A DNA stretch of 64,000 nucleotides from Clostridia bacterium. Lineage in GTDB: Bacteria > Bacillota > Clostridia > UBA1381 > UBA9506. The notes under the pieces are model-generated. The model saw only the letters and a program-made list of their open reading frames with translations, ran no database searches and had not been told where the DNA came from. The position numbers and the translations under genes were made by a program. Within the stretch, counting starts at the first letter, position 1; every line of letters begins with the position of its first letter. Positions 40,915 to 59,482 of the stretch are shown piece by piece. The DNA is taken from contig JAFQLU010000131.1 of assembly GCA_017396465.1 (NCBI GenBank), forward strand, positions 7,065-71,064. The letters run 5' to 3'.

Positions 40915-41053
40915 AGGCACACCACCTTTCACAAAAAGCAAATTTCACCGATTTTTCAGCAAGTTATATTCTTGTCATCTTTTTGTGGCTATGGTATGAT
41001 TATAGCATCAGGAACATTTATTGTCAATCCTATTTTATCGTGGAGGGAAACCA

Positions 41054-42397
41054 TTGAAGCACGAAACATTCCATTACGAAAATATAGAAGCCATAAAAGC
41101 AAAATTTAACGAAATCGGAGCATGTCCTCCCGTGGCAGAGAACATTGGCACGCTGTGGGATGAAGTATCCTTGGGCGCACATAGCCTGAAAAACCGTTTT
41201 GTGATTCAGCCCATGGAGGGATGCGACGGCACAAAAGCCGGTGCCCCGGACGAACTGACAAAACGGCGGTATCTGCGGTTTGCGGAAAGCGGCGCAGGCG
41301 TTATCTGGTTTGAAGCGGTTGCTATTGTGCACGAGGGCAGAGCCAATCCGAGACAGCTTTATTTATCATCGGAAACGGCGGAGGAATTTAAAAAGCTGAT
41401 TGCCGAAATCAAGGAAACCGCCATCCAAAAACACGGCTTTGCACCGAAAATCATCATGCAGGCAACCCATTCGGGCAGACAGTCCAGACCGGACGATGCA
41501 CCGAAGCCTGTGATTGCCTATCGGCATGCGCTATACGAGAAAACCCGACCGATTCCCGGGGACGAATGCATCGCTTCAGACGATGCGCTGAAAGCTTTGG
41601 AGGAAAAGTTTGCAGAAGCAACGGTTTTGGCGCAGGAGGTCGGCTTTGACGGCATCGATGTAAAGTGCTGCCACGGATATCTCTTAAACGAACTGCTTTC
41701 GGCATACACACGACCGGGGCTGTATGGCGGTTCCTTTGAAAACCGCACAAGACTATTCCGAAACGGCGTAGACGCCGCATTTTCTGCGGCGAAAGGCGAT
41801 TTTATTGTTACTTCCAGGCTAAATATATATGACGGTTTTCCCTATCCCTTCGGCTTCGGCGTGAAAGAGGGCGAGGGTAACACGCCGGACTTAACGGAAG
41901 GCATGAAACTGGTGGGTGAGCTTTATCAAAAGGGTATGCGGCTTTTAAACATCACCGCAGGAAACCCTTATGTGAACCCCCATGTGAACCGCCCTTACGA
42001 TAGCGGGGGTTACATGCCGGAGGAGCATCCTTTAGAGGGAATTCTTCGCATGAGCAATTGCACAGAAACCGTGCAGAAGGCATATCCCGATATGGTGATT
42101 GTGGGCTCGGCATTTTCCTATCTTCGCCAGTTTGCACCGCACTTTGCGGCAGGCGCAATCGAAAACGGCAATTGCACGCTGGCAGGCTTCGGACGACAAA
42201 GCTTTGCCTATCCGCAGTTTATTGAGGATTTAAAGAAAAACGGAGAAATGAACCCGAAAAAATGCTGTGTTTCCTGCAGCAGCTGTTCCAAAATGATGCG
42301 GATGGGAACGGTGGCTGGATGCATGGTGAAGGATCAGGAAGTATATCTGCCTCTGTATCGTGAGGCGGTGGCAAAGCAGGAAAGGGGGAATGTATGA
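41054..42397 (+). CDS. NADH:flavin oxidoreductase (Old Yellow Enzyme fold) with C-terminal CxxCxxC...C motif
   Basis: NRFVIQPMEG, HSGR, GFDGIDVKCCHGYLLNELLS, YGGSFENR, CVSCSSC...GC; TTG start after GGAGG. Confidence 0.87.
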   Translation: MKHETFHYENIEAIKAKFNEIGACPPVAENIGTLWDEVSLGAHSLKNRFVIQPMEGCDGTKAGAPDELTKRRYLRFAESGAGVIWFEAVAIVHEGRANPRQLYLSSETAEEFKKLIAEIKETAIQKHGFAPKIIMQATHSGRQSRPDDAPKPVIAYRHALYEKTRPIPGDECIASDDALKALEEKFAEATVLAQEVGFDGIDVKCCHGYLLNELLSAYTRPGLYGGSFENRTRLFRNGVDAAFSAAKGDFIVTSRLNIYDGFPYPFGFGVKEGEGNTPDLTEGMKLVGELYQKGMRLLNITAGNPYVNPHVNRPYDSGGYMPEEHPLEGILRMSNCTETVQKAYPDMVIVGSAFSYLRQFAPHFAAGAIENGNCTLAGFGRQSFAYPQFIEDLKKNGEMNPKKCCVSCSSCSKMMRMGTVAGCMVKDQEVYLPLYREAVAKQERGNV

Positions 42398-43152
42398 TGC
42401 AAACGGCAATTGTAACGGGCGTAACCGGCGGCATCGGCAATGAAACGGCAAAACTGTTTTTAGAAAAAGGCTGGCGCGTTGTGGGCGTGGGCAGGTCGGA
42501 CATCTCCAAAGCAGAAAACCTGACGGCGTTCGGTGAAAGATTTCTCTATGTGCAGGGCGATGTTTCGGTAAGCGACACGAAGGACAGAGCCATACAGGCG
42601 GCGCTTGATGGCGGTAACACCATTTCGGCTCTTATAAATGTTGCAGGCGTGGCACCCAAGGTGCGTGCAGACCTTTTGGAGATGACAGAGGAAAGCTACG
42701 ACTATGTGATGGACATCAACGCCAAAGGCACCTTCTTTTTCACCCAGACGGTGGCAAAGGAAATGATAAAAGCGGCGGACAAAGAAAAAAGCTTTAACGG
42801 CGCTATTGTGAATATAGCATCTATATCTTCTTATACCAGCTCCGTAAACCGCGGCGAATACTGCATCTCCAAAGCAGGCATCTCCATGATGACACAACTT
42901 TTTGCAGACCGCTTGGCAGAATATCATATCACCGTAAACGAAATCCGTCCCGGCGTGATTCAAACCAATATGACGGCAGGCGTGACGGAAAAATACGATA
43001 AACTGATAGAAGAGGGAACATTTCCCATTGCCCGTTGGGGCACGCCTTCGGACGTGGCAAAGGCAGTGTTCCTCTTTGCAGACGGAACTTTATCCTACAC
43101 CACGGGCGAAGCGCTTTCCGTAGACGGAGGCTTCTGCATCCGTCGCCTGTAA
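42394..43152 (+). CDS. Short-chain dehydrogenase/reductase
   Basis: TGVTGGIG, NVAG, YCISK, PGVIQT, VDGG. Confidence 0.93.
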   Translation: MMQTAIVTGVTGGIGNETAKLFLEKGWRVVGVGRSDISKAENLTAFGERFLYVQGDVSVSDTKDRAIQAALDGGNTISALINVAGVAPKVRADLLEMTEESYDYVMDINAKGTFFFTQTVAKEMIKAADKEKSFNGAIVNIASISSYTSSVNRGEYCISKAGISMMTQLFADRLAEYHITVNEIRPGVIQTNMTAGVTEKYDKLIEEGTFPIARWGTPSDVAKAVFLFADGTLSYTTGEALSVDGGFCIRRL

Positions 43153-43164
43153 AGGAGGTGTGAT

Positions 43165-45033
43165 ATGGAAATATTCAGCACAGAGGTTTTGATTGTGGGA
43201 AGCGGATGTGCAGGCTTAAACGCCGCAGACACCCTGTTTGATTTGGGGAAAACCGATATTCTTCTGGTAACGGAAGGCATGAACATGGGAACCTCGCGGA
43301 ATACGGGGAGCGACAAGCAGACCTATTATAAGCTTTCTTTAGCTTCGGGGGAGCCGGACTCGGTTTCGGAACTGGCAAAAACCTTCTTTTCCGGCGGCGG
43401 TGTAAACGGCGATACGGCGCTGGTTGATGCGGCGTGCTCTGTGCGCGCATTTATGAAGCTGGTGAATCTGGGTGTTCCCTTTCCCACCAACCGATACGGC
43501 GAGTTTGTGGGATATCAGACGGATCATGACACGAAAAAGCGCGCCACCTCGGCAGGACCGCTGACTTCCGGATATATGACCGAGGCACTGGAAAAATCGG
43601 TGAAACGGAAAAACATCCCCATCAAAGATGAAACAGTTATTTTTAAGATTTTAACGCAAAACGGCGCCGTCATCGGGGCTTTGGGCTATGATAAAAAAGA
43701 GCAGAAAATCGTGCTCTTCCGTTGCCCGAACATCATTCTTGCCACGGGCGGTCATGCCATGATATATGAAAACAGCGTGTACCCCGAAAGCCAGACCGGT
43801 ATGACCGGAATGGCGCTGGAGGCAGGCGCGGAAGGTGCAAATCTTTCTGAGTGGCAGTATGGTATTGCTTCCGTTGACTTTCGGTGGAACCTGTCCGGCA
43901 CCTATCAGCAGGTGATGCCGCGGTACATTTCCGTGGACGAAAAGGGAAAAGAGCATGAGTTTCTGTCGGACTATTTTGAAAAACCCGAGGACGCAGTAAA
44001 CTTCGTGTTCATGAAGGGCTATCAATGGCCTTTTGATTTTGAGAAGGTGAACGGCTCTTCTGTAATAGACCTGATTGTGTATCACGAAACCATGCACAAA
44101 GGGCGAACGGTTTATATGGATTTTACCAAGGAACCGTCGGCGTTAGAGCATGGCTTTGATACTTTGAGTGAGGAAGCATATACTTACCTTAAATCTTCCG
44201 ATGCGCTTCTTAAAACGCCTATTGCGCGGCTTGAGAAAATGAACCCTAAAGCGATAGAATTATATCAAAGTCACGGCATTGATTTAAAAAAGGATTTGCT
44301 GAAAATTTCCGTGTGCGCCCAGCACACCAACGGCGGTCTTGCGGTGGACGAAAACTATGAAACCACGGTATCCGGACTATATGCTGCAGGGGAAGTGGCA
44401 GGAACCTTTGGCGTGTATCGCCCTGGGGGCACAGCGCTGAACGCCACGCAAACGGGAAGCCTTCGGGCAGCAGAGCATATCGCGTTTTCGGTTTCTAAAA
44501 AAACGGTTTCGGACGATGTAATTTTGGATTGTGCGAACAAAGAAGTCGGTAAACTGTTCGGGGAAGCAGAATGGAATGTGGGCGAAGCAATGAAAAAATT
44601 TGCATCCGAAATGAGCCGTGTGGGCGCATTTTTAAGAGATGTTCCCGGCATGAAAAGGCTGAAAGAAATGAGCGAAAGCATGCTGAAAAGCTTTCCGCCG
44701 ATTCCCGCGGGCAAGAAAGCTGTGGCAGGCATCAAGCTGCGGGATATGCTGATAACGCAGATTGCGGTATTAGACGCGATGGTAGCGGCGGCAGAGCATT
44801 TCGGCAGCCGCGGAGGTTCTTTGGTAACGGTTGGAAATCCCCCCATGGACAGCGCAAAACAGATTTTTGCGATGACAGAAAGTCAAAAATCCGCCTGCGA
44901 AAATCAGGTGATATACACGGCGTACCAAAACGGGACGGCAAACAGCAGATTTTGCGACGTTCGCCCCATTCCCGAGGAAAACAACTGGTTTGAAACCGTG
45001 TGGAACGCATATATGAAAAAACGGAATGTATAA
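43165..45033 (+). CDS. FAD-binding protein of SdhA/FrdA/NadB superfamily
   Basis: IVGSGCAGL, LATGG, QHTNGG, GLYAAGE, RPGGTAL, SRG. Confidence 0.85.
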   Translation: MEIFSTEVLIVGSGCAGLNAADTLFDLGKTDILLVTEGMNMGTSRNTGSDKQTYYKLSLASGEPDSVSELAKTFFSGGGVNGDTALVDAACSVRAFMKLVNLGVPFPTNRYGEFVGYQTDHDTKKRATSAGPLTSGYMTEALEKSVKRKNIPIKDETVIFKILTQNGAVIGALGYDKKEQKIVLFRCPNIILATGGHAMIYENSVYPESQTGMTGMALEAGAEGANLSEWQYGIASVDFRWNLSGTYQQVMPRYISVDEKGKEHEFLSDYFEKPEDAVNFVFMKGYQWPFDFEKVNGSSVIDLIVYHETMHKGRTVYMDFTKEPSALEHGFDTLSEEAYTYLKSSDALLKTPIARLEKMNPKAIELYQSHGIDLKKDLLKISVCAQHTNGGLAVDENYETTVSGLYAAGEVAGTFGVYRPGGTALNATQTGSLRAAEHIAFSVSKKTVSDDVILDCANKEVGKLFGEAEWNVGEAMKKFASEMSRVGAFLRDVPGMKRLKEMSESMLKSFPPIPAGKKAVAGIKLRDMLITQIAVLDAMVAAAEHFGSRGGSLVTVGNPPMDSAKQIFAMTESQKSACENQVIYTAYQNGTANSRFCDVRPIPEENNWFETVWNAYMKKRNV

Positions 45034-45047
45034 AACAAAAGGAGAAG

Positions 45048-46070
45048 ATGATTATGGCAAAGAAAATGAAATTAGGTGTGATCGGTTGTGGCGGTATGGC
45101 AACCAATATCCATGTTCCCAGCATTATGGAAATTGAAAACTGCAAGATTGTTGCAGTTTGTGACCTGTACGAAGAAAAGGCAAAGGCGTTGGCGTCCAAA
45201 TATAATATCCCTAAAACGTACGCCTTGCATCACGAAATGATTGAAAAAGAAGAAATGGACGGCGTAGTGATTTTAGTAAACCCCGAACGTACCTACTGGG
45301 TGGCGGATATGTGCCTTAAGGCAGGGCTTCATGTTATGATGGAAAAGCCTGCCGGCATCAACTCCTATCAGGCGCACTCTCTGGAAAGAACGGCAAAGGA
45401 AATGGGCAAAATCGCCGCTGTTGCCATGAACAGAAGACATATCCCGTTGGTAAGAGAAGTGTTAAAGCGCGTAAAAGCGGCAACGGAAATCACGCAGATC
45501 GACAGCCGTTTCATGAAATTTTCCAATATCCACAAGGATTGGCACTACACCAGCGCATATAACTGCGACATCATCCACGCGCTGGATTTGCTCCGTTATG
45601 CGGCAGGCTCCGAGCCGAAAGACGCGGCAACAGTTGTGCAACAGTTCGATTCTCCCGTTGACAACGCATGGACCAGTGTTATCCGCTTTGAAAACGGCAT
45701 CACAGGCACACTTCGTGCAAACTACCGTTGCGCAGGCAGATTCCATGATTTAGAAATTCAGGGTCCCCGTGCAAGTGCGTTTATCAATTTAGGTCTGGGG
45801 GATATTACCTGCAATGCAAAAATTTATTACGGGGATGGAAACTCCATGTACTCTGCGGCTTCTACCGGTGTGGAAGAAACCAGAGTGGAATTCCTGGATG
45901 GTATAGAACTCGCCGGAGGAAGAACGGAATATTCTCACTACTATGGATATAAAGCGGAAAATGTTGACTTTGTCAACTGTGTACTGGAAGGCAAAACTCC
46001 GATTTGCACCATTGAAGATGCGGCAAAATCCATGGATATGGCAGAGCTTCTGCTGGAAAAGAGAATTTAA
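45048..46070 (+). CDS. Gfo/Idh/MocA family oxidoreductase
   Basis: GVIGCGG, HVMMEKP, NRR, DIIHALD; AGGAG RBS. Confidence 0.92.
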   Translation: MIMAKKMKLGVIGCGGMATNIHVPSIMEIENCKIVAVCDLYEEKAKALASKYNIPKTYALHHEMIEKEEMDGVVILVNPERTYWVADMCLKAGLHVMMEKPAGINSYQAHSLERTAKEMGKIAAVAMNRRHIPLVREVLKRVKAATEITQIDSRFMKFSNIHKDWHYTSAYNCDIIHALDLLRYAAGSEPKDAATVVQQFDSPVDNAWTSVIRFENGITGTLRANYRCAGRFHDLEIQGPRASAFINLGLGDITCNAKIYYGDGNSMYSAASTGVEETRVEFLDGIELAGGRTEYSHYYGYKAENVDFVNCVLEGKTPICTIEDAAKSMDMAELLLEKRI

Positions 46071-46105
46071 ACAGCAAAAAATCTGTATAGGAAAAGGGGA
46101 GACGC

Positions 46106-46864
46106 GTGGTGATACAAAAAGGCTTGGTATCTGTAACCTTTCGGAATCTTTCGCCGGAGGAAGTTATAGCGGTAGCAAAAAAAGCAGAGTTTTCCGCCAT
46201 CGAATGGGGCGGAGATGTGCATGTGCCGGCAGGAGATATTGAAAAAGCAAAAGAAGTGCGGAAGCTGACAGAGAGTGCCGGTCTTTCTGTTTCATCATAT
46301 GGCTCTTATTTCCGTGCAGGCGATAACGAAAATGCGAAAGAAGCCTTTGCGCCAATTTTACAAACGGCGGTGGCGTTGGGTGCACCGGTCATTCGCATAT
46401 GGGCAGGCAGTAAATGGTCTTGGAAAGCGGATGAAGCATATAAAAAAAAGGTGGTTTCCGATACGCAGATTGCGTGCGATATAGCAAAGGAATACGGCAT
46501 AGATATTGCCTATGAATATCACGGCTGGTCGCTGACGGACAACCGTTTCTCTGCGCTAGATACGGTGAACAACGTAGACCGAGAAAACATGTATCTGTAC
46601 TGGCAACCGAATTTTACCTTAAGCGAAGAGGAAAACGTGCTTGCCCTTCGGGCGGTTCTGTCATATCTTAAGCATGTGCATTGCTTTTACTGGGACGCCG
46701 ATGAAGCAAAATTTCCGCTGGAAGAGGGCAGAGGCATCTGGACGCGGTTTGCTGAAGTTTTAAAAGCGGACGAAAAGGACCGTGCCGTGATGCTGGAATT
46801 TGTAAAAGATGGAAAAGAAGAGCAGTGCATAGAGGATGCAAAGGTTCTGCTTGATTTATTTTAA
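46106..46864 (+). CDS. Sugar phosphate isomerase/epimerase (AP endonuclease 2 TIM barrel)
   Basis: SVTFR, IEWGGDVH, SSYGSY, IRIWAG, EYH, YWQP, LEF. Confidence 0.85.
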   Translation: MVIQKGLVSVTFRNLSPEEVIAVAKKAEFSAIEWGGDVHVPAGDIEKAKEVRKLTESAGLSVSSYGSYFRAGDNENAKEAFAPILQTAVALGAPVIRIWAGSKWSWKADEAYKKKVVSDTQIACDIAKEYGIDIAYEYHGWSLTDNRFSALDTVNNVDRENMYLYWQPNFTLSEEENVLALRAVLSYLKHVHCFYWDADEAKFPLEEGRGIWTRFAEVLKADEKDRAVMLEFVKDGKEEQCIEDAKVLLDLF

Positions 46865-46886
46865 AATGATTTGAGGCGGTATTCAT

Positions 46887-47696
46887 ATGAAATTTGTGGG
46901 ACATACAATGGCAACGCCAAATCTTCCGGTTTCGGAGGCAATTGCGCTTTTTCGCTCCATCGGGCTGGACGGAATCGAAATCGTGGCGCAGGAGGGTGGC
47001 GCCTTTTCGATCAACGACCCCGAGGAAAAGGTCAAAGCCGTGGTAAAACAGGCAAAGGCTCTGCCTTGCGGCGTGGTTACCTTAACGCCTTATTACTGGG
47101 ATATCAATAACATAGACCCCAAAATCGCGGAAGCAGAAATTGCAGGAATGAAAAAGTCTATTGATTTAGCGGCTTTTATGGGTGCGCAGTTTGTCCGTGC
47201 CTACGGTGGCAAGGAAGAAGCGGGCGGCACACGGGTGGAAAATTATAAAAATGCGGTGGAGGCTTTAAAAGAAATCGGCGCATATGCATCCAAAGCCAAG
47301 GTGACCGTTTTGGTGGAAAACCATCCCGGCACCGTGACCCGAACCGGCGAGGATACCTATCGGCTGATAAACGCCGTTGGTTCGGACAGCGTAAAAGCGC
47401 TGTATGACCCGGCAAACGTGCTGCACGATACCACCGAGGATTGGGAAAAAACCTACGAGGTGCAAAAGGATATCATCGGCTACGTGCATGTCAAGGACTT
47501 TTTTATGGTTGACAACGAGCGAAAAGCCTGCGTGGTGGGCAATGGTATTGTGCCCTGGGATAAGATTATGAAAAAGCTGTCGGGCTACGACGGATTTTTG
47601 TCCTTTGAATATGAAAAACGGTGGTATCCGGACCAGCTTCCCGATGCGGAAGTGGGCGTGAAAATGTGCGCGGATTATATCCGGTCTCTGATATAG
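46887..47696 (+). CDS. Sugar phosphate isomerase/epimerase (AP endonuclease 2 TIM barrel)
   Basis: GLDGIE, ENH, DPAN, HVKD, SFE metal-binding motifs. Confidence 0.88.
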   Translation: MKFVGHTMATPNLPVSEAIALFRSIGLDGIEIVAQEGGAFSINDPEEKVKAVVKQAKALPCGVVTLTPYYWDINNIDPKIAEAEIAGMKKSIDLAAFMGAQFVRAYGGKEEAGGTRVENYKNAVEALKEIGAYASKAKVTVLVENHPGTVTRTGEDTYRLINAVGSDSVKALYDPANVLHDTTEDWEKTYEVQKDIIGYVHVKDFFMVDNERKACVVGNGIVPWDKIMKKLSGYDGFLSFEYEKRWYPDQLPDAEVGVKMCADYIRSLI

Positions 47697-47804
47697 GAGA
47701 CGTTTTTAAAAATGGAAAAAATCATGCATAATATCTATCAGATTTCATAAAATATCGTTGGCAGGAAAAAGAAAGATTTATCCAAACTGACCTGAAAAAA
47801 CCTG

Positions 47805-47833
47805 TTGACAAAATGCGGTTTTTTTGCTATAAT
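47805..47833 (+). promoter_or_regulatory. Consensus sigma-A promoter of the aspS-gat operon
   Basis: TTGACA-17bp-TATAAT with extended -10 TG. Confidence 0.85.
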
Positions 47834-47839
47834 AATTTG

Positions 47840-48072
47840 CGGAGACTCGGCTTTTGTGGAAAGTCTGTCAGGGAGAATGCGTCACCGACTGAAAGCGCGT
47901 TTGAGATGAGTAGTAAGCTTGGGAACACTCCGATTGCTTTTTAAAACAAAATAAAAAAGAGGATGCGCGCTTTTTGCGTATCAATGCGGGTGGCACCGCG
48001 GGTAATGTTTATTTTAAGTTTACTCGTCCCGGGAATATTATGTTTCGTAATATTCTTGGGACTTATTTTTTT
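47840..48072 (+). ncRNA. T-box riboswitch leader, probable Asn (AAC) specifier
   Basis: Stem I base cggag/ctccg, AGGGAG and GACTGAAAG boxes, gggAACa at 47921-47927, T-box AATGCGGGTGGCACCGCG at 47983-48000, terminator 48026-48072. Confidence 0.88.
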
Positions 48073-48097
48073 GGGATATTTATAGGAGGGATACAAT

Positions 48098-50176
48098 ATG
48101 TACAGAACACATTTTTGTAACGACATCCGTGACGCACATATCGGGCAGACCGTTCAGCTTGCCGGCTGGGTGGATGTTATCCGTGACCACGGTGGCGTTA
48201 TCTTTGTGGACATCCGCGACTATACGGGTGTGACACAGGTGGTTATCCACAATGAGGCACTTTTGGAAAATGTGAACCGTGAAACCGTTATTTCCGTCAG
48301 CGGTATTGTGGAAAAGAGAGACCCGGAAACCGTAAACGAAAAAATTGAAACAGGTAATGTTGAGCTGGTTGCAGATTCTTTGGACGTATTAGGCAAAAGC
48401 AAGAATATGCTCCCCTTTGAAGTGAGAGCATCCAGAACCAGTAAAGACGAGGTTCGTTTGAAATACCGTTATCTGGACCTTCGTAATCCCAAAAATCACG
48501 ATAATCTGGTGATGCGTTCCAAAATCATCCGTCACCTGAGAAATAAAATGGAAGAAAAGAACTTCCTGGATATGCAGACACCGATTTTGACCGCATCTTC
48601 TCCCGAAGGCGCAAGAGACTTTCTGGTGCCCAGCCGTAAGCATCCCGGTAAGTTCTATGCGCTGCCTCAGGCACCCCAGCAGTTCAAACAGCTTCTGATG
48701 GTGTCGGGGTTTGACAGATACTTCCAGGTAGCACCTTGCTTCCGTGACGAGGATGCCCGTGCAGACCGTTCTCCCGGCGAATTCTATCAGCTGGACTTTG
48801 AAATGGCGTTTGCAACCCAGGAAGAAGTATTAGAGGTTTGTGAAGACGTAATCTACGATACTTTTAAAACCTTCTCCGATAAAAAAGTAACAGAAAAACC
48901 TTTCCGCCGTATCACATACGCGGAATCTATGATGAAATACGGTTCCGATAAGCCGGACCTTCGAAACCCCCTTATCATCTGTGACTTAACCGACTTTTTC
49001 GCAGGGGTGGACTTCCCGGCGTTTAAGGGCAGACCGGTTCGCGGTATCGTGGCAGACTGTCAGGGCAAATCCAAGAAATTCTTTGAGGATTCCTTAAAGT
49101 TTGCAACCTCTGCCGAGGTTGGTCTGGGCGGCTTAGGCTATATCACCTTAAAAGAGGGTGTGTTCGCAGGTCCTATTGCGAAATTCCTGTCCGACGCACA
49201 GAAAGAAGAAATCACGGCGTTAACCGGTGTGAAAGAGGGCGAAACCCTGTTCTTCATCTGTGACGATAAAAAGAACGACACCGAGAAAAAAGCAGGTCAT
49301 ATCCGTACCTGGCTGGCAAAACCCGAACAGTTGGATTTAATCCGCGATGATGCCTTTGAATTCTGCTTTGTTGTGGACTTCCCCATGTTTGAGGACGATG
49401 AAGAAACCGGTGAAACCATCTTCACCCACAACCCCTTCTCCATGCCGCAGGGCGGAATGGAAGCGCTTCTTACCAAGAACCCCAACGATGTGCTGGCTTA
49501 TCAGTACGACCTGGTATGTAACGGTATTGAGCTTGCATCCGGTGCGGTTCGTAACCACGATATCGACATCATGAAAAAAGCATTTGAAATCGCAGGCTAT
49601 GATGAAGAAGAATTAAAGAGCCGTTTCAATGCGTTATATACCGCATTCCAGTACGGTGCACCTCCCCATGCCGGCATGGCACCGGGTATTGACCGTATGG
49701 TAATGCTTTTGACCGACGAAGAAAAAATCTTGGATGTTATCGCATTCCCCTTAAACGGTAACGCACAGGATCTGCTCCTTGGTGCACCCAGTGAGGTTAC
49801 CAATCAGCAGCTGGAGGATGTTCACCTGTTAGGCAGCGGCAGTGCATTGGCACAGCGCGCGCAGGCAACCGGCGGTGCATCCAAAGCGGCAAAGGGCAAG
49901 CGTTCCACCTTCTCTAACGCACAGCAGCTGAACCAGATTTCTTTAACCGATGAGGAAGAAGCTGTGGTAGAGGGTATCTTCAAGGCAATGAGCGAAAGCG
50001 AAGAAAAGCTCAAAGCAGTAGATACAGAGAATGTGGAAGAAATGGTACACGTTATGCCGATGACCAACGTTCTGCGTGAAGACGTGCGCAAGCAGCCGTT
50101 TACCAGAGATAGCCTTTTGGAAGGCGCTCCTGAACGCAGTGAGGACAGCTGGCAGGTACCCAGACTTGTAAAGTGA
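48098..50176 (+). CDS. aspS: Aspartyl-tRNA synthetase (probably non-discriminating) fused in frame to a C-terminal GatC domain
   Basis: YRTH.C, RDHGG, RYLDLR, PEGARDF, LPQAPQQFKQ, CFRDED, GAPPHAG, VIAFP; Gly/Ala/Lys linker; then LNQISL...VDTENVE...NVLREDV...LLEGAPE....WQVPRLV. Confidence 0.92.
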   Translation: MYRTHFCNDIRDAHIGQTVQLAGWVDVIRDHGGVIFVDIRDYTGVTQVVIHNEALLENVNRETVISVSGIVEKRDPETVNEKIETGNVELVADSLDVLGKSKNMLPFEVRASRTSKDEVRLKYRYLDLRNPKNHDNLVMRSKIIRHLRNKMEEKNFLDMQTPILTASSPEGARDFLVPSRKHPGKFYALPQAPQQFKQLLMVSGFDRYFQVAPCFRDEDARADRSPGEFYQLDFEMAFATQEEVLEVCEDVIYDTFKTFSDKKVTEKPFRRITYAESMMKYGSDKPDLRNPLIICDLTDFFAGVDFPAFKGRPVRGIVADCQGKSKKFFEDSLKFATSAEVGLGGLGYITLKEGVFAGPIAKFLSDAQKEEITALTGVKEGETLFFICDDKKNDTEKKAGHIRTWLAKPEQLDLIRDDAFEFCFVVDFPMFEDDEETGETIFTHNPFSMPQGGMEALLTKNPNDVLAYQYDLVCNGIELASGAVRNHDIDIMKKAFEIAGYDEEELKSRFNALYTAFQYGAPPHAGMAPGIDRMVMLLTDEEKILDVIAFPLNGNAQDLLLGAPSEVTNQQLEDVHLLGSGSALAQRAQATGGASKAAKGKRSTFSNAQQLNQISLTDEEEAVVEGIFKAMSESEEKLKAVDTENVEEMVHVMPMTNVLREDVRKQPFTRDSLLEGAPERSEDSWQVPRLVK

Positions 50177-50186
50177 GGTGTGTGAA

Positions 50187-51371
50187 ATGAAATATTATGC
50201 TGAAAAGCTGAGTGATAAAGGAACTATCGCGGTGGAAGATACCATTCTGATGAAGGATGTTGCATCTTGCGCAGGTTCCCGTATTCTGGAAGGGTTCAAG
50301 TCTCTCTTCAGCGCAGAAGCGGTTGTCCGCCTGCAGGAAAAGGGCTATGAAATCGCAGGGAAAACCCCCGTAGGCGAATTCGGTTTAGACTTAGTCGGCG
50401 AATTTTCCTACGGCGCTGAGCAGGAAGGTACCCTTTCCGGCGCGGCGGCATCTTTGGTAGCGCAGGGTGAAGCAGAAGCGGCTCTGGGCGTTGACATGAA
50501 CGGTGCAACCAGAAGAGCGGCGGCACTTGCCGGCGTGGACTTCTTAAAACCCACCTACGGAACTGTTTCCCGTTACGGCATCATTTCCTGTGCCGCATCC
50601 GGCGAGCAGGTAGGTGTATACAGTAAAGACGCAGCAGGCGTTGCTAAAATCATGGGTGTGATTGCAGGCCACGATGATAAAGACGGCACAAGCCTGCCGG
50701 AAGCATCTTATGACTATGTAACCGATAAAGCTATCTCCGGCAAAAAGGTTGCCATCATCAGCGATTTGCTTAAAAAAGCAGACGATGATGTGAAAGAAAA
50801 GGTAAATGCCTATGCTGATGCACTTCGCGCAAACGGTGCTAAAGTGGAAGAAATCTCCTGCGACCTGTTTGAAGTGGCAAACACCGCTTGGCAGATTTTA
50901 ATGTGTGCGGAAACCTGCAACAACGTTTCCCGTTACGACGGCGTGAAATACGGTCACCGCGCAGCTTCTTATAAAAATATTGACGAGCTGTATGTAAATT
51001 CCAGAACAGAGGGCTTTAACTTCTTAACAAAAGCCGTGATTCTGTACGGTTCGGATGTGTTATCCAAAAACAGATATAAAGATTGCTACGATAAGTCTTT
51101 GCGCGTTCGCCGCGTGGTGGCAGAGGGCATGAAAAAGCTTTTTGAAAGCTATGATGCCGTGCTGACTCCCGCCTGCGCAAAATCGGCTTACGAAGCATAC
51201 GATATTCATGATGCATTCGGCAAAGTGTTCTCCGAGAGCGTGTTCACCGCAGCTGCAAACTTAATCGGTACACCGGCGCTCGTTTCCGGCGGCGTTCAGC
51301 TTCTGGGTAAGCACTTTGATGAAAGCACACTTTTAAGCCTTGCATATCGTGTGGAAAGGAAGGGTGAATGA
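50187..51371 (+). CDS. gatA: GatA-like amidase-signature subunit, N-terminally truncated and lacking the catalytic triad
   Basis: Position between gatC domain and gatB; GSRILEGF, KPTYGTVSRYG, SRYDGVKYGHR, SRTEGF retained; KDN->EDT, GGSSGG->GTLSGA, GSDTGGSIR->GVDMNGATR. Confidence 0.85.
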   Translation: MKYYAEKLSDKGTIAVEDTILMKDVASCAGSRILEGFKSLFSAEAVVRLQEKGYEIAGKTPVGEFGLDLVGEFSYGAEQEGTLSGAAASLVAQGEAEAALGVDMNGATRRAAALAGVDFLKPTYGTVSRYGIISCAASGEQVGVYSKDAAGVAKIMGVIAGHDDKDGTSLPEASYDYVTDKAISGKKVAIISDLLKKADDDVKEKVNAYADALRANGAKVEEISCDLFEVANTAWQILMCAETCNNVSRYDGVKYGHRAASYKNIDELYVNSRTEGFNFLTKAVILYGSDVLSKNRYKDCYDKSLRVRRVVAEGMKKLFESYDAVLTPACAKSAYEAYDIHDAFGKVFSESVFTAAANLIGTPALVSGGVQLLGKHFDESTLLSLAYRVERKGE

Positions 51372-51373
51372 TT

Positions 51374-52792
51374 ATGAAATACGAACTCGTCATCGGTCTG
51401 GAAACCCATGTGGAACTGGAAACCAACTCCAAGATTTTCTGTTCCTGCGGCGGTCACTCTGCCGCAAAAGAACCCAATGACTGCGTATGCCCTGCCTGCA
51501 GCGGTATGCCGGGGATGCTTCCCGTTATGAACAAGCATGTGGTGGAGCTTGCCGTAACAGCAGGCCTGATGCTGAACTGTAACATCAATCGCTACACCAC
51601 CTTTGATAAGAAAAACTATTATTATCCCGATCTGCCCTGTGCATATCAGATTACCCAGCTGAACCACCCCATCTGTACCGACGGTGTGGTTACCATTAAA
51701 ACATCCGAGGGTGCAAGAGATATCCGCATCAAGCAGATTCATATGGAAGAGGATGCAGGTAAGCTGGTGCACGGCGGAAGCTTCTCTTTTGTGGACTTTA
51801 ACCGTACCAGCGTCCCGCTGATTGAAATCGTAACACAGCCCGACTTCCGCAGTGCAGAAGAGGTTGTAACGTATCTGAATAAATTAAAATCCATGTTCCG
51901 CTCCGGCGGCATTTCGGAATGTGAAGAAGGCGCAATGCGTTGCGACGTAAACATTTCCGTTCGTCCCGAGGGAAGTGAAGAATTCGGCGTTCGTACCGAA
52001 ATCAAGAACATGAGCTCCTTTGACGCTATTGACCGCGCGATTCGCTACGAGGCACAGCGCCATATGGATGCGTTAGAATACGAAATCGAAGAACTGGTGC
52101 AGGAAACCAGAAGATTCGACGATGTCAGCGGTAAAACCTTTGCAATGCGTAACAAGGAAACCGAAGCGGACTACCGTTATTTCCCCGATGCAAACCTGAT
52201 GCCTATCGTAATTGACGATGCTTGGCTGGAAAAAATCAAAGCAAACAAGCCCGTTGCAGTAGACGAAAAGGCGGAAGAATACAGAGAAGCAGGCATTTCC
52301 GAAAAAGAAATCGACATGCTTCTGGCAAGCCACAAAATCAGCAAGCTTTTAGACGATGTGGTAGCAAAAGGCTGCAACGCAAAAGACACCGCAACCTGGA
52401 TATTAACCGACTGTGCAGGTATCCTGCGTAAAGAAGGTAAAACCCTGGGTGAGCTGGAGGTTACGGCGGACAGCTTAGCGGCTTTGATACAGATGGTAGA
52501 CGGCGGCAAAATCAACCGCAGTGCGGCAAGAAAAGTGCTGATTGCCATGATTATTGACGGCGCAGATCCCGTGGCATACTGTAAGGAAAACGGTCTGGAC
52601 AGACAGGTGGATTCTTCCATGATTGAAGGCATCATTGATGCGGTTATCGCCGGAAATCCCCAGGCTGTGGAAGACTATAAAAACGGTAAAACCAAGGCTG
52701 TTCAGGCTCTGTTCGGTGCTTGTATGAAACAGCTTAAAGGTGCAGGTGACCCTGCGGTTATCAAAGAAATTTTAGAACAGAAATTAAAGTAA
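51374..52792 (+). CDS. gatB: Asp-tRNA(Asn)/Glu-tRNA(Gln) amidotransferase subunit B
   Basis: IGLETHVEL, KNYYYPDLP, HMEEDAGK, PLIEIVT, MRCDVNIS, EIKN, QETR, DYRYFP, YqeY-like tail. Confidence 0.96.
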   Translation: MKYELVIGLETHVELETNSKIFCSCGGHSAAKEPNDCVCPACSGMPGMLPVMNKHVVELAVTAGLMLNCNINRYTTFDKKNYYYPDLPCAYQITQLNHPICTDGVVTIKTSEGARDIRIKQIHMEEDAGKLVHGGSFSFVDFNRTSVPLIEIVTQPDFRSAEEVVTYLNKLKSMFRSGGISECEEGAMRCDVNISVRPEGSEEFGVRTEIKNMSSFDAIDRAIRYEAQRHMDALEYEIEELVQETRRFDDVSGKTFAMRNKETEADYRYFPDANLMPIVIDDAWLEKIKANKPVAVDEKAEEYREAGISEKEIDMLLASHKISKLLDDVVAKGCNAKDTATWILTDCAGILRKEGKTLGELEVTADSLAALIQMVDGGKINRSAARKVLIAMIIDGADPVAYCKENGLDRQVDSSMIEGIIDAVIAGNPQAVEDYKNGKTKAVQALFGACMKQLKGAGDPAVIKEILEQKLK

Positions 52793-52801
52793 GAAAAAAC
52801 A

Positions 52802-52835
52802 AAACAGCGAAGGTATAGCGTTACCTTCGCTGTTT
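52802..52835. terminator. Hairpin after gatB with weak U-tail on the plus strand
   Basis: aaacagcgaaggta-tagcgt-taccttcgctgttt; followed by gatta, preceded by an A-rich run. Confidence 0.6.
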
Positions 52836-52853
52836 GATTATGGATGAGGTAAC

Positions 52854-53918
52854 ATGAAAAAAATTCTGCTGATTATGGTGGGCGGCACTATCTGTACCGC
52901 CCTGAACGAAAAAGGAACGCTTTCGGTTTCTGCGGATGCCGGCGCGCTGATAACAGAAAATTTCTATGCGTCCGATTCCCCTTATGCCGGAAGTGTTACA
53001 TTTGATATAACAGAAAACCTCGGCATCTTAAGCGAAAATATGACGGTGGACAACTGGAACCGTATGATAGCTTTGTACCGGGATTCCATCGGAAAAGACA
53101 GCTATAACGGCGTGATTTTTGCCCACGGAACAGATACGCTTGCTTATTCTGCCGCTTTGTTTGCACAGCTTTTGAGTGACACCGATATTCCTGTGTTCTT
53201 CGTGTCCAGCAACGCGCGGCTCACATCGCCCCGTGCCAACGGAAATGAGAACTTCCGTGCGGCGGTGGAATGTATCGCAAGAGGGATTGTGCCGAATGTA
53301 TATGCGGTATACCGGAATATTTCGGACGTAAGAATGTATTTGCATCCGGCATCGAGACTGATGCAGTGCGGAAATTATTCGGAGGATTTTTATAGTTTTG
53401 GCGCGATGGATATAACAAATATTAATGATGAAAATAGCGCGGAATATTTTGAAATGCTTCGGAAAAGCTATCCGCCTGAAAAACGCAAACCGGGCTTTGA
53501 TTTCAGCAAACTGCCGCCACTTTGCGACCATGTTCTGATGCTGATGCCCTATGTGGGACTGCGGTATGATGTGATAGACTACAGCAAGTTTTCTGCGGTA
53601 CTTCACGGCACCTACCATTCCGGAACGGCTTGTGCCGAGGCGGAAAATGAAAGACATATGCTTTTGTCCATGCTGGATGCCTGCGGAAAAGAGAAGGCAG
53701 ATGTGTATTTTGCTCCGTCGAAGCCGGAGGGGGAAATTTATGATACGGTACGGGTGATTGCATCCCACGGTGAGGGAAACGAAAAAATTCGGTTTCTTTA
53801 CGGTTATACCAATGAAACGGCGTATGCAAAGCTTCTTCTGGCGTATTCTGTGATGAGTGAGGAAGAAAGAGAAGAATTTATCCGTACAGAACGGAATTTT
53901 GAAAAAATTGATGCGTAA
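52854..53918 (+). CDS. Asparaginase/glutaminase-family protein (AnsA/GatD-like fold), atypical
   Basis: MVGGTIC, LSENMT, HGTDTLAYSA, TYHSGT; GAGGT RBS. Confidence 0.85.
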   Translation: MKKILLIMVGGTICTALNEKGTLSVSADAGALITENFYASDSPYAGSVTFDITENLGILSENMTVDNWNRMIALYRDSIGKDSYNGVIFAHGTDTLAYSAALFAQLLSDTDIPVFFVSSNARLTSPRANGNENFRAAVECIARGIVPNVYAVYRNISDVRMYLHPASRLMQCGNYSEDFYSFGAMDITNINDENSAEYFEMLRKSYPPEKRKPGFDFSKLPPLCDHVLMLMPYVGLRYDVIDYSKFSAVLHGTYHSGTACAEAENERHMLLSMLDACGKEKADVYFAPSKPEGEIYDTVRVIASHGEGNEKIRFLYGYTNETAYAKLLLAYSVMSEEEREEFIRTERNFEKIDA

Positions 53919-53932
53919 AAAGGATGATAATA

Positions 53933-55090
53933 ATGACAGTAAAACTGTATGACAAAGATGCATATATCAAAGAATTTACCGCCACAGTTCTGTCCTGCGA
54001 GGAGACTGATGGCGCATATCAGGTCGTGTTGGACGAAACGGCGTTTTTCCCCGAAGGAGGCGGTCAGCCGGCAGATACCGGAACGCTGGGTGAGGTAAAT
54101 GTTAAAGATGTGCAGGAGGAAAAGGGCATCATCGTTCATATAACCGACGGCGCTTTGCCTGTGGGGGAAAAGGTTTCAGGAAAGCTCAATTGGGACATAC
54201 GTTATTCACGCATGCAGAGTCACGCCGGAGAGCATATCGTTGCAGGAACGGTGCATACCATGTTTGGCTACGATAATGTGGGCTTTCATTTGAACGACAG
54301 CTTTATGACCGTGGATGTGAGCGGTCCTTTAACCAAAGAGGATATCGGCAGAATCGAGCTTGCGGCAAACAAAGCCATTTATCAGAACAACGCCATCACC
54401 GTAACATTCCCCTCAACGGAGGAAGTGGCGGCGTTAGAGTATCGCAGTAAGCTGGACATCACCGAGGGGCTGCGCATTGTGACCATCGAAAATGTGGATT
54501 GCTGTGCTTGTTGCGCACCGCATCCCAAAAGCACGGGAGAAATTGGCGCGATAAAAATTTTAGACTTCTATCCCAACAAAGGCGGAACCCGAATGGAAAT
54601 GGTGGCAGGTTTGAATGCATATCTGGACTATAAAAAACTGCACGAAGCCAATAAAACATTGATGAAGCTGCTCTCTGCCGCAAGAGATGAAGTGGCGGAA
54701 ACCGTAGAAAAGTTAAACGAGCAACTGCAACAACTCAGAGGCGAAAATCAAAGACTTTCCAAGGAACTGGCACTTTCCGCCATGGCACCGGTTGCGGTAG
54801 GTGATTCTGCCTATGTGATTTCGGAAGGCTTATCTTATGACGAGTTGCGCCATTGCTCCAATAGCTTAACGGAGCAGGGCTTCAAAAACTGCATTCTTTT
54901 GTCTCGCTCGGAGGAATCAAGCTATATCTATGTGGTAAGCAGTAGTGAAAACGAGGCAAAGGAAAAGGTTTCCGCGCTGAACGAAGCATTTTCCGGCAAA
55001 GGCGGCGGAAAACCCAATTACGCCCAGGGGAAAATCACGGTAGAAGATGTGGATGCCGCGAAAAGCTTATTGGAAAAATTGTTGCAATAA
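53933..55090 (+). CDS. AlaX-type alanyl-tRNA editing protein with C-terminal DHHA1/C-Ala domain
   Basis: FFPEGGGQPADTG, HAGEH (HxxxH), CCAPH (CxxxH), GKGGGKPNYAQG; no aminoacylation domain. Confidence 0.9.
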   Translation: MTVKLYDKDAYIKEFTATVLSCEETDGAYQVVLDETAFFPEGGGQPADTGTLGEVNVKDVQEEKGIIVHITDGALPVGEKVSGKLNWDIRYSRMQSHAGEHIVAGTVHTMFGYDNVGFHLNDSFMTVDVSGPLTKEDIGRIELAANKAIYQNNAITVTFPSTEEVAALEYRSKLDITEGLRIVTIENVDCCACCAPHPKSTGEIGAIKILDFYPNKGGTRMEMVAGLNAYLDYKKLHEANKTLMKLLSAARDEVAETVEKLNEQLQQLRGENQRLSKELALSAMAPVAVGDSAYVISEGLSYDELRHCSNSLTEQGFKNCILLSRSEESSYIYVVSSSENEAKEKVSALNEAFSGKGGGKPNYAQGKITVEDVDAAKSLLEKLLQ

Positions 55091-55104
55091 AGGATGTAAT
55101 CACA

Positions 55105-55143
55105 AAAGCTCGTAGGGAAGATATTTTCTCCCTACGAGCTTTC
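55105..55143. terminator. Hairpin between convergent alaX and araC, overlapping the araC stop
   Basis: aaagctcgtaggga...tccctacgagcttt. Confidence 0.6.
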
Positions 55144-55899
55144 TTTATTCATTTTCATGGGCGAGATGCCGTACTTTTTTCGGAAAGCACGGCTGAAATA
55201 TAAGGGATCTGTATATCCCACCGATGCGGCAACCTCGGTGATGGTTTCAAAATCACCGTTATCAATCAGCGCCTTGGCATGGGAAATTCGCTTGCTGATG
55301 ATATATTTCTGCGGCGTTTGTGCAAACTTTGCCACAAAGATTTTGCGGAAATATGTGTCGGAAATGCCGCACAAAAGGTGAAGATGGTCTGTTTTTAAAT
55401 GACTGTCGAATATATGATCCCGCAAATATTGCACCGCAGGCGCAATCAGCTGAAATTTCTGCTTTGCGGCGTAGTCTGTGTTTTCCAGGTTGGAAATGTG
55501 GGAAATTAAGCTATAAAACATGGCATAGCATTTGTATTTATCCGATGGATGCTCCAGCTTCCACAGGTCTGCAAAATGAGAAAAAAAGTCTCTTGCCTCG
55601 GGAAAATTTTCCATAGAATAAACTGTCGGCTCGGGGTGATGGATATCTGCTTCAAACATGATGGCGCAAAAACGGCAATCTGATTCCGGGACGGATATAA
55701 AGTCATAGGAGGAACCGCAGGGAAGAAAAATCATTTCATTTTCCCGCACGGTGAGGTGCTTGTTCTGAAAATAAAAGGTACCGGCACCCATGGGGCGATA
55801 AACGAAACTGTGATTTTTTTTGAACTCCACATGGGACTGTTTTTTAGAAGCACCGGTGGAGGTGGAAAGCAGTTTTAAATTTTCCATATTTTCAAACAT
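55132..55899 (-). CDS. AraC family transcriptional regulator
   Basis: ITEVAASVGYTDPLYFSRAFRKKYGISP; start at MFEN after GAGG. Confidence 0.9.
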   Translation of the reverse strand: MFENMENLKLLSTSTGASKKQSHVEFKKNHSFVYRPMGAGTFYFQNKHLTVRENEMIFLPCGSSYDFISVPESDCRFCAIMFEADIHHPEPTVYSMENFPEARDFFSHFADLWKLEHPSDKYKCYAMFYSLISHISNLENTDYAAKQKFQLIAPAVQYLRDHIFDSHLKTDHLHLLCGISDTYFRKIFVAKFAQTPQKYIISKRISHAKALIDNGDFETITEVAASVGYTDPLYFSRAFRKKYGISPMKMNKESS

Positions 55900-57477: not shown

Positions 57478-57544
57478 CTTGTGTTTTAACGAAAAATCAT
57501 GTATAATTAAAATGGAAAATTACGTTAAGAAGAGAGTGTTTACA

Positions 57545-59482
57545 ATGCAAAAAGCACATGATTATACCATTATGCCTTTGGATGAACGGTATTTAGAAGA
57601 AATATGCCAGGACATCAAAGAGCAGTATGAAAAAGGGATTGCAAATCTTGCCCTTTTTAAAATGACATTGGTTCCGGAAGGTATGCCGCCGAAACCGAAA
57701 GCGGAAGAATTTTGCGGCATTTATGATTTGTTCCGTGATCGCCTTGCAGAAATGGGATTAGAGTGCGGTATCCTTGTGCAGGAAACCATCGGACACGGGT
57801 ATGCGCTCAACGAGCCGTCGTCTTTTCAGAAATATGTTGGAAGAACCGATGGAGAAGAAAAAACGAAATGTTGTCCCTATGACGAAAATCTCAGACAACA
57901 TTTTCACGATGTGATGAAAACCATTGCGTCTCATAAGCCGAAAGCCATTATGGTGGACGATGATTTTCGTTTGTTGTTCTTCTATGGCAGAGGTTGCACG
58001 TGTCCCCTTCATATGAAACGGCTTTCGGAGCTTTGCGGAAGAGAAGTGACAAGAGAAGAACTCAATGAACGTATCGAAAAATACGGGGAAAGTGATCCTG
58101 TTGTGCAAACATATCTGGAAACACAGAAAGAAGCATTAATCGGTGCGGCAAAAGCAATGAGAGCCGGTATAGACAGCGTGGATGCAACCATCCCTGTATC
58201 TTATTGCACCACCGGAAGCGCCTGTGAGTTTGCGCCGGACATCGCAAGAGAGCTGGCGGGAAAAGGAAATCCCACTACCGTAAGATCCTTTGTGGGAATA
58301 TACAGCCCGAAAGGCGCGAAGGAATTTACTTCTCCCATGTACTGTATTGCACAGCAGATGGCACTTATGAAAGATAAGGTAGATCAGATTATTGCCGAAG
58401 GAGATACGTGTCCGCATAACAGATATGGCCTGAGTGCAAGACATATGCACTCGTTCCGTGTGGGAGCAATTTTAGAGGGAACCTCCGGCTCCAAGCAATG
58501 GATTACAAAGCTGGACAATGTGGAAATGAAAACGGGAAAAGCATACAGAAAAATTCTGTCGGAATATAATGGCTTCTATCAAACACTTTCTGAAATTGTA
58601 TCAGAAATGACACCGATCGGCTGCTGTATTCCTGTTCTGGAAAAACCCTATTACGGATTGGACGTTGAGGAATGGGACAAGCGCTATGATGGTTGGGCAC
58701 GCTGCGTCTTGGAAAGACTGGGACTGCCTTTGTATTTTTCTAAAAATCCCGGAAATGCTGTTTTTCTGGAGGGAGATATCGATAAGCACTTTAGCGATGA
58801 ACAGATAAAAGACATATTGTCCGGAACGGTCCTGATGGCATCCGATACGGCAGAACGCCTCTGTAGCCGCGGATTTTCAGAATATATCGGTGTTTCTGTG
58901 TCGGAATATACGGGAAGCACTATCAAAGGGGAAGAAATCGTTAAGACAGGAAATGTTTGTCCAAAGCAAAAAAACATAAAAAAGCTAACTCCGCTGGATG
59001 AAAAGGGGGTTATCGGATCCTGGGCGTATCACAGTTGTGACGGAAGAAACCGTGAAAAGCTGTTTCCCGGAACTGTGACATATCAGAACAGCGCAGGCGG
59101 TACTGTGACCACGTTTGCAGGTACGCCCGTTGCAGAATATTATTATACGGAAGGATTCTCTTTCCTGAATGCAACGAGAAAACAACAACTGATTGACCTG
59201 CTGAAATCGACGGATCATTTACCGGTATTTTATCCCGGTGATATGGAAATATATCTTCGGGCAGGGAAGCTTTCGGACGGTACGCTGGCAACGGTATGGT
59301 TTAACTTGTCCTTTGACCCGATGGAGGAAGCAGAACTGGTTCTGGAAAAAGATGCAAAAGAGATTTTAAGATTGATGCCGAACGGAACATTTGAGCCTTG
59401 CGCTTTCCGTAAAGAAGGGGACACGACGGTTGTGGATATTTGCATTGAACCGATGTTACCGGTGGTATTGATTGTGAAATAA
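57545..59482 (+). CDS. Hypothetical glycoside-hydrolase-like TIM-barrel protein (GH42-like architecture)
   Basis: TIGHG, CCP, MVDDDFR, GCTCPLH, AEGDTCPH; no signal peptide. Confidence 0.55.
   Translation: MQKAHDYTIMPLDERYLEEICQDIKEQYEKGIANLALFKMTLVPEGMPPKPKAEEFCGIYDLFRDRLAEMGLECGILVQETIGHGYALNEPSSFQKYVGRTDGEEKTKCCPYDENLRQHFHDVMKTIASHKPKAIMVDDDFRLLFFYGRGCTCPLHMKRLSELCGREVTREELNERIEKYGESDPVVQTYLETQKEALIGAAKAMRAGIDSVDATIPVSYCTTGSACEFAPDIARELAGKGNPTTVRSFVGIYSPKGAKEFTSPMYCIAQQMALMKDKVDQIIAEGDTCPHNRYGLSARHMHSFRVGAILEGTSGSKQWITKLDNVEMKTGKAYRKILSEYNGFYQTLSEIVSEMTPIGCCIPVLEKPYYGLDVEEWDKRYDGWARCVLERLGLPLYFSKNPGNAVFLEGDIDKHFSDEQIKDILSGTVLMASDTAERLCSRGFSEYIGVSVSEYTGSTIKGEEIVKTGNVCPKQKNIKKLTPLDEKGVIGSWAYHSCDGRNREKLFPGTVTYQNSAGGTVTTFAGTPVAEYYYTEGFSFLNATRKQQLIDLLKSTDHLPVFYPGDMEIYLRAGKLSDGTLATVWFNLSFDPMEEAELVLEKDAKEILRLMPNGTFEPCAFRKEGDTTVVDICIEPMLPVVLIVK

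Follow-up and report, generated by a model that had tools for sequence, protein, structure and literature searches.

The locus described here raises the question of where a transfer RNA (tRNA)-dependent amidotransferase obtains its ammonia once the subunit that should release it has lost the means to do so. In such amidation a glutaminase (GatA or GatD) is coupled to a kinase (PMC2330236). The gene concerned, gatA* (50187..51371, + strand), lies in a 64,000-nucleotide stretch of DNA from a Clostridia bacterium (GTDB lineage UBA1381; UBA9506; contig JAFQLU010000131.1 of assembly GCA_017396465.1, forward-strand positions 7,065 to 71,064), hereafter the window, and encodes a 394-amino-acid (aa) GatA homologue without the catalytic triad, the glutamine-binding residues, and the N-terminal helices. 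The explanation that we prefer, with moderate confidence in scaffold and donor taken jointly, is that GatA* would serve as the scaffold in an Asp-tRNA(Asn) amidotransferase fed by free ammonia, not by glutamine. The open-access PMC and bioRxiv literature, a scope outside which most subscription papers fall, yielded no account of a GatA that naturally lacks the triad.

The open reading frame comprises 394 codons with zero internal stops, and GAGGT stands ahead of its ATG. GatA is the best family match of the product, although its 266.4 bits against TIGR00132 do not reach the curated cut-off of 481.1, and identity to solved GatAs (2df4_A and 3h0l_A) is 30-32%. When aligned with Staphylococcus aureus GatA (2df4_A, on whose alignment the S. 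aureus residue numbers were counted by hand), GatA* has Glu17 (GAA, 50235..50237) at the position of catalytic Lys79 in the IKDNI motif, Leu83 (CTT, 50433..50435) at that of cis-Ser154, and Ala107 (GCA, 50505..50507) at that of the nucleophile Ser178. The same alignment places Val284 at Arg358 and Ser351 at Asp425, the Arg/Asp pair that binds glutamine in GatA (PMC4027206). Residue 15 aligns with S. aureus residue 77, so that about 62 N-terminal residues are missing, and a 9-residue gap before the cis-Ser position corresponds to the vanished NP..RVPG loop. KPTYG.VSRYG, SRYDGVKYG.R, and SRTEGF are kept. The original prediction, made from the letters alone, had read the three catalytic replacements at these codons, the absence of some 65 N-terminal residues and of the loop, the apparent loss of the substrate-binding Arg and Asp, and the survival of the three motifs in a clean frame with a ribosome-binding site, and the alignment bears it out throughout. 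A second gap of 9-10 residues near the C-terminus had escaped it, and GatA* is in all about 90 residues shorter than bacterial GatA. A missed start or frameshift was considered for the short N-terminus and rejected, the start being conserved in the family and upstream room lacking; the shortening is a real deletion, because the aspS::gatC stop codon (50174-50176) lies directly upstream.

The original prediction further supposed that solvent might reach the ammonia tunnel through the deletions. Several small pocket residues have become bulky, with Asp68 and Leu69 in place of Gly/Ser, Met104 in place of Thr175 (a tunnel-related residue), and Asn105 in place of Gly176, and the larger side chains could equally well fill such space. 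The AlphaFold model has a mean predicted local distance difference test score (pLDDT) of 67.5, with low confidence at residues 1-42, 59-77, and 125-139; in a Foldseek search with this model the ten best matches were all GatA chains, at template modelling (TM) scores of 0.68-0.74. GatA* thus resembles the GatA of GatCAB (S. aureus 2df4, Aquifex aeolicus 3h0l, Pseudomonas aeruginosa 4wj3) in its amidase-signature fold (TM 0.73), its GatB-facing motifs, and its operon with gatB and gatC, but differs in having neither the Ser-cisSer-Lys triad nor the glutamine-binding Arg/Asp and in scoring below the family cut-off. As judged from its residues, it fills the GatA position of GatCAB without the catalytic features that define the enzyme, and so does not count as a GatA by function.

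These losses are shared by a family. A GTDB search found 424 stretches encoding GatA* relatives, of which 80 were fetched for counts by locus; the best 120 homologues listed are 393-394 aa long and 76-100% identical. Among 88 relatives Asp (87) or Glu (1) stands where the Lys would be, Leu (82), Ile (4), or Val (2) where the cis-Ser would be, and Ala (45), Ser (34), Thr (7), or Gly (2) in the place of the nucleophile, whereas Lys, Ser, and Ser are present in 35/35 intact GatAs from the same set of loci. The nucleophile-position Ser is thus kept in 34 of the 88, yet Lys and cis-Ser are kept in none. Because the substitutions are clade-wide, against 35 of 35 in intact GatAs, loss of the triad is not attributable to chance. 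The frame is intact, at 385-400 aa, in 80/80 loci, and the pairwise ratio of nonsynonymous to synonymous substitution rates (dN/dS) has a median of 0.14 and a maximum of 0.24, nowhere near 1 (2265 of 3741 pairs, with 0.1<dS<1.5, the remainder falling outside these bounds; pairs are not independent). The corresponding values are 0.08 for the partner GatB and 0.07 for intact GatA, the latter from only 19 of 595 pairs.

Triad-less GatAs extend far beyond the close family: among 134 representatives of clusters, chosen for an appropriate length, all three motifs are present in 60. For a distant comparison, 28 triad-less representatives were picked by hand, each from a different 50%-identity cluster. 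Twelve positions are invariant in all 28 (D103, P122, G125, S128, G131, S138, E242, D251, G256, R273, K282, and G288) and R129 and R249 are kept in 27, while positions 104, 107, 135, 235, 236, 284, and 351 vary freely. It could be argued that the old pocket has gained a new catalytic or ligand site, or that ammonia is borrowed from another glutaminase, and seven novel pocket residues (D68, N105, R110, E140, W235, Q236, and E350) are indeed fixed within the close family. Over the 28 distant proteins, however, only Lys to Asp/Glu (26/28) and Gln to Arg110 (23/28) are widely kept, a pair that probably forms a structural ion pair, and the rest vary; Ser84 (50436-50438), a candidate alternative catalytic Ser, is present in 14/88 relatives and was rejected; and the classical glutaminase PF04960 was found in one of five genomes tested. 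We regard both versions of this explanation as quite unlikely. An invariant core and interface around a drifting pocket is, at the level of residues, what marks a scaffold and not a new catalyst, and the original suggestion that selection has kept a pseudo-enzyme as a structural subunit is well supported by the dN/dS values, the fate of Ser84, and the invariant interface.

In a quick GatA tree, built with the trait columns included and containing long branches, 39 of 51 triad-less proteins fall on one side of a branch with a Shimodaira-Hasegawa-like approximate likelihood ratio test (SH-aLRT) value of 100, and 12 fall among intact GatAs. The GatA-like proteins that are complete or nearly so in length, have a degenerate triad, and group with the intact GatAs are P0143, P0162, P0166, P0177, P0185, P0197, P0200, P0214, P0217, P0218, P0259, and P0263; they represent either independent losses or poor sequences.

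Whether the operon is a working route to Asn-tRNA was approached through three genome samples, namely 61 relatives, 50 genomes (of 80) from which the GTDB loci come and for which no completeness was stated, and 299 further genomes sampled evenly over the class, each with a completeness of 92% or more and with G202 left unscored. Among the 61 relatives, 19 carry gatA*, nine of them alone and ten beside an intact gatA, and asparaginyl-tRNA synthetase (AsnRS) occurs in 2/19 of these versus 29/42 of the others. Of the 50 GTDB-loci genomes, all with GatA*, 38 have no intact gatA and nine have AsnRS. Class-wide, the GatA* family is present in nine of 299 genomes, from five families, and is the sole GatA in eight; AsnRS was found in 0/9 of these genomes versus 250/290 of the others. 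The own genome of the window, 55% complete, contains one gatA match and one gatB match. In ten genomes that are 93-98% complete (G017, G042, G177, G377, G204, G136, G146, G230, G382, and G327) neither AsnRS nor any GatA besides GatA* was found, and here GatA* probably serves the sole route to Asn-tRNA. Glutaminyl-tRNA synthetase (GlnRS) is present in 52/55 genomes whose only GatA is the dead one, so the job remaining for the enzyme is Asn-tRNA. As Asn codons must be read, and neither AsnRS nor another GatA was found, the simplest inference is that AspRS::GatC-GatA*-GatB (AspRS being aspartyl-tRNA synthetase) makes Asn-tRNA without a glutaminase of its own. Of the asparagine synthetase genes, asnA was found in 0/5 genomes tested and asnB exceeded its cut-off in 2/10, which leaves this argument unchanged because AsnRS is missing. 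Separately, asnS matches with one internal TGA were seen in two GatA* carriers (G044:C10:49822-51198 and G056:C40:43078-44454).

Several points weigh against this reading. All the genomes are draft assemblies, in which absent means not found, and the own genome is little more than half complete; related genomes are not independent, so that Fisher values for co-occurrence are overstated. Intact GatA stands beside GatA* in 12 of the 50 GTDB-loci genomes as in ten of the 19 relatives, and AsnRS in nine of the 50; because some carriers hold one or the other, the operon is not essential everywhere. In G377 (97% complete), G061, and G056 neither GlnRS nor intact GatA was found, which reflects either an assembly gap or a dead-GatA enzyme that also makes Gln-tRNA. 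Draft status, together with a dN/dS about twice that of intact GatA and GatB, could be taken to mean that the operon is no working Asn-tRNA route at all, gatA* being in decay or AsnRS and intact gatA merely missing from incomplete assemblies. The intact frames at every locus, a dN/dS never above 0.24, the recurrence of the pattern in the ten nearly complete genomes, the class-wide distribution of AsnRS, and the conserved Asn T-box described below all speak against such decay or artefact, which we consider very improbable.

The operon is preceded by a promoter-like sequence, TTGACA-17-TATAAT with a TG extension (47805..47833, + strand), which matches the consensus at 12 of 12 positions and is the best of 11 sites in 47650-55200, as a consensus match only. 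There follows a T-box leader (47840..48062, + strand) with a stem I specifier, a UGGN-ACC type antiterminator GGGTGGCACCGCG (47988-48000, + strand), and a competing terminator (48026-48062, + strand); with 35.3 bits (E 1.1e-4) against RF00230, the leader does not reach that family's gathering score, which is 93. The specifier codon, identified by pattern, is AAC for Asn (47924-47926, + strand), its register being one that we assume by analogy to known T-boxes. By the same pattern AAC occupies this position in 53/60 loci, and the antiterminator was found in 58/61 upstream regions. Support for the T-box rests on this conservation, because the folding energy of stem I is no better than that of shuffled sequences (z +1.19). 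The first gene is an aspS::gatC fusion (48098..50176, + strand) of 692 aa, with AspRS at residues 1-577 and a GatC domain at 604-691; it scores 614 bits against TIGR00459 (cut-off 374) and 58 against TIGR00135 (cut-off 47.1), and Pfam concurs. The GatC domain and gatB are present in 80/80 loci and aspS in 79/80. The AspRS half carries RDHGG, presumably a mark of non-discriminating AspRS, and the Asn T-box supports reading it as a possible non-discriminating enzyme. A tRNA-Asn, in which a U1-A72 pair was looked for, was not among the 25 tRNAs of the 55% complete own genome (G000).

Such an arrangement has known counterparts. Asn-transamidosomes and the AspRS-GatC fusion family NF009460 (PRK12820) likewise have AspRS, GatC, GatA, and GatB together under an Asn T-box, and the fusion architecture is already named in NCBIfam, although the window protein scores 456 against a cut-off of 1379; in the described Asn-transamidosomes GatA is active, whereas GatA* has no triad. 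A second kind of operon (L155-L158; G018:C49, G095:C6, G093:C14, and G103:C143) has an AspS frame of about 700 aa with a putative GatC domain, followed by intact gatA and gatB. Its members as direct ancestors were not supported, AspS and GatB being 41-44% identical, and their GatAs fall among ordinary GatAs. Within the own genus, a gene of about 450 aa with a weak match to the AsnRS profile, probably an archaeal-type AspRS (C8:9725-11047 in the own genome), precedes either asnS or the aspS::gatC operon (contrast G010:C3, G015:C21, and G016:C133 with G001, G006, G007, G009, G011, and G012), which suggests that asnS and the aspS::gatC operon replaced one another at the same locus.

The partner gatB (51368..52792, + strand) encodes 474 aa and scores 500 bits against TIGR00133 (cut-off 314.8). 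Its metal- and ATP-site residues (E12, H14, E127, E128, E153, E211, K213, and N214) are kept in 83/83 partner GatBs. Two other positions have changed (S. aureus numbers first): Lys88 to Cys91 (codon 51638-51640), with Cys in 82 partner GatBs and Ala in one, and Asp274 to Asn276 (codon 52193-52195), with Asn in 83/83, whereas Lys88 and Asp274 are kept in 33/33 other GatBs. We take Lys88 to be a tunnel or gate residue, and the two changes possibly reflect co-evolution of the tunnel.

A different source of ammonia is suggested by the next gene, which lies beyond a terminator-like hairpin with a 14-pair stem (52802..52835) and encodes AnsX, a 354-aa asparaginase-fold protein of PF00710 (52854..53918, + strand). 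Its AlphaFold2 model (pLDDT 96) has the fold of a type I asparaginase, and its best sequence match in the PDB is GatD 2d6f (E 1.6e-11). AnsX keeps Thr12, Thr93, and Asp94 but has Gln171 (53364-53366) at the catalytic Lys position, together with an invariant His255 (53616-53618). In a tree of 44 rows, made up of the top 30 class-wide matches and the loci of the relatives, 33 rows without the Lys and with a His in the C-terminal loop form one clade (100/100), in which Gln, Ser, Ala, Glu, or another residue takes the place of the Lys. In the 11 ordinary AnsA rows the catalytic position is Lys, and Gly stands where the clade has its His. His255 is found in 32/32 Lys-less rows that cover the segment and in 0/11 Lys-bearing rows. 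Mutation of that Lys inactivates class 1 asparaginases (PMC10949315, PMC8256714), so AnsX may be inactive. The subfamily may represent migration of a catalytic residue or a second pseudo-enzyme.

The distribution of AnsX closely follows the absence of AsnRS and the presence of GatA*. PF00710 occurs in 16 of the 61 relatives, namely 16/30 without AsnRS versus 0/31 with it; by class, these are 14/17 AsnRS-less GatA* genomes (8/8 of those with the dead GatA alone) and 2/13 AsnRS-less genomes with intact GatA only. Among the 50 GTDB-loci genomes a homologue is present in 41/41 without AsnRS and in 2/9 with it, the three weakest matches being counted irrespective of subfamily. Over the three samples AnsX accompanies 48/48 AsnRS-less genomes with only a dead GatA (8/8, 32/32, and 8/8), but 2/13 and 7/40 AsnRS-less genomes without GatA*. 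The nine best class-wide matches are exactly the nine GatA* genomes of five families; a second tier comprises eight genomes, seven of them AsnRS-less, whose GatA serine motifs are kept where checked. AnsX adjoins the operon in 25/80 loci, where it lies downstream of it, convergent with it, or upstream. In 5/5 genomes checked it is the sole PF00710 gene.

The main rival explanation builds on this pattern, with AnsX as a dedicated replacement amidase that docks on GatA* and GatB and channels to the tunnel the ammonia it releases from Asn or Gln; GatA* would then be an adaptor and AnsX a bacterial counterpart of archaeal GatD. The near-complete association with dead-GatA genomes, the adjacent loci, and the GatD match favour it, and His255 may be a substitute base, its pattern probably representing one evolutionary event. 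The dependence of AnsX on GatA* among AsnRS-less genomes is more easily explained by a dedicated donor than by a free pool, a further point to be set against free ammonia. On the other side, AnsX without the Lys is present, too, in AsnRS-less genomes whose GatA is solely of the intact kind (G052, G058, G133, G195, G221, G360, G366, G224, and G244); the two proteins do not diverge in step, the homologue being unlinked and 27-36% identical in 23/43 GatA* genomes in which GatA* is 70-79% identical; a terminator separates the genes in the window; and the seven GatA* genomes without AnsX all hold AsnRS, as one would expect were AnsX no more than a liability in cells able to use Asn directly. Nor does AnsX look like a GatD: it has no N-terminal GatD domain (of the 405 profile positions, the first to be matched is 63), scores 69 bits against a cut-off of 324, and lacks the Lys of the Thr-Lys-Asp triad; in Foldseek searches GatD comes at rank 43, after free type I asparaginases. 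From these comparisons AnsX is not GatD. It resembles type I L-asparaginases (TIGR00519; 5ot0, 2him) in fold and in Thr12, Thr93, and Asp94, and differs from them by the replaced Lys, the invariant His, a clade of its own, and a score of 85 bits against a cut-off of 260. Archaeal GatDE (GatD 2d6f, 1zq1; PMC2330236) pairs a GatB-type kinase with an asparaginase-fold ammonia donor and would be alike if AnsX docked; unlike there, a GatA-fold subunit is still present here and docking is putative. We judge a docked AnsX improbable, though it deserves to be taken seriously. Our reading is that AnsX is more likely a metabolic coupling to life without AsnRS, near-obligate with a dead GatA, than a fixed subunit, and that it may recycle Asn rather than dock as archaeal GatD does.

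With GatA* as scaffold and free ammonia as donor, the pathway would run as follows. Uncharged tRNA(Asn) would switch on the operon via the AAC-specifier T-box ahead of aspS::gatC-gatA*-gatB. The AspRS half would load Asp on tRNA(Asn), while the GatC tail would tether AspRS to GatA* and GatB, and GatB, its metal- and ATP-site residues kept, would phosphorylate the Asp-tRNA(Asn). GatA* would fold, cap the GatB cradle, and line the tunnel mouth, and NH3/NH4+ from the cell pool would complete the amidation; the change of GatB Lys88 may drop a gate that is no longer needed. Lastly, and most tentatively, AnsX might split free Asn into Asp and ammonia, both inputs of the pathway, without binding the complex, free Asn being unusable for loading because the cell is without AsnRS; this step may be wrong, AnsX having no Lys of the kind needed in class 1 asparaginases. 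Use of free ammonia has precedent, as amidotransferases accept NH4Cl in vitro and a destabilised glutaminase site favoured ammonia use in yeast GatFAB (PMC4027206). Single-domain, ammonia-dependent NAD synthetase (PMC3376133) belongs to a family in which some members rely on free ammonia in vivo and others on a glutaminase encoded as its own subunit; that enzyme has no glutaminase domain at all, whereas here the subunit has survived as a conserved pseudo-enzyme.

A third architecture can be imagined, in which GatA* is an adaptor for the Lys-less, His-bearing AnsX and the amide passes from free Asn into an ungated GatB tunnel. It is a speculative arrangement that we doubt; if true, cells without AsnRS would load Asn by first splitting it and then rebuilding it on the tRNA, and bacteria would have converged on archaeal GatDE.

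Beyond AnsX, the window encodes a 388-aa AlaX-like tRNA-editing protein (53924..55090, + strand; NF040865 at 155 bits, below cut-off; Pfam tRNA_SAD and DHHA1), whose gene adjoins the operon in 18/80 loci. Upstream, positions 41021-47696 (+) hold oxidoreductases (NADH:flavin, short-chain dehydrogenase/reductase, FAD-binding, and Gfo/Idh/MocA) and two xylose-isomerase-like TIM barrels, probably for sugar catabolism. Three open reading frames at 57479-59482 (+), 59586-60920 (-), and 61265-62185 (+), of 667, 444, and 306 aa, gave no Pfam match at E 1e-5.

The nitrogen source, the T-box, the absence of AsnRS, and the asparaginase-like neighbour are additions to what the original prediction held. 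Together with it they describe an apparently essential amidotransferase that persists with no working GatA across hundreds of species of gut Clostridia, the 424 GTDB stretches representing the close family alone. These organisms offer a natural system for studying free ammonia as a physiological donor of GatCAB, a non-catalytic job of GatA, and the co-evolution of tunnel gating and glutaminase, and they draw attention to an undescribed Lys-less asparaginase subfamily tied to the loss of AsnRS. Metabolic reconstructions that score the presence of GatABC as glutamine-dependent Asn synthesis, as in PMC9026213, may misstate the nitrogen needs of such bacteria.
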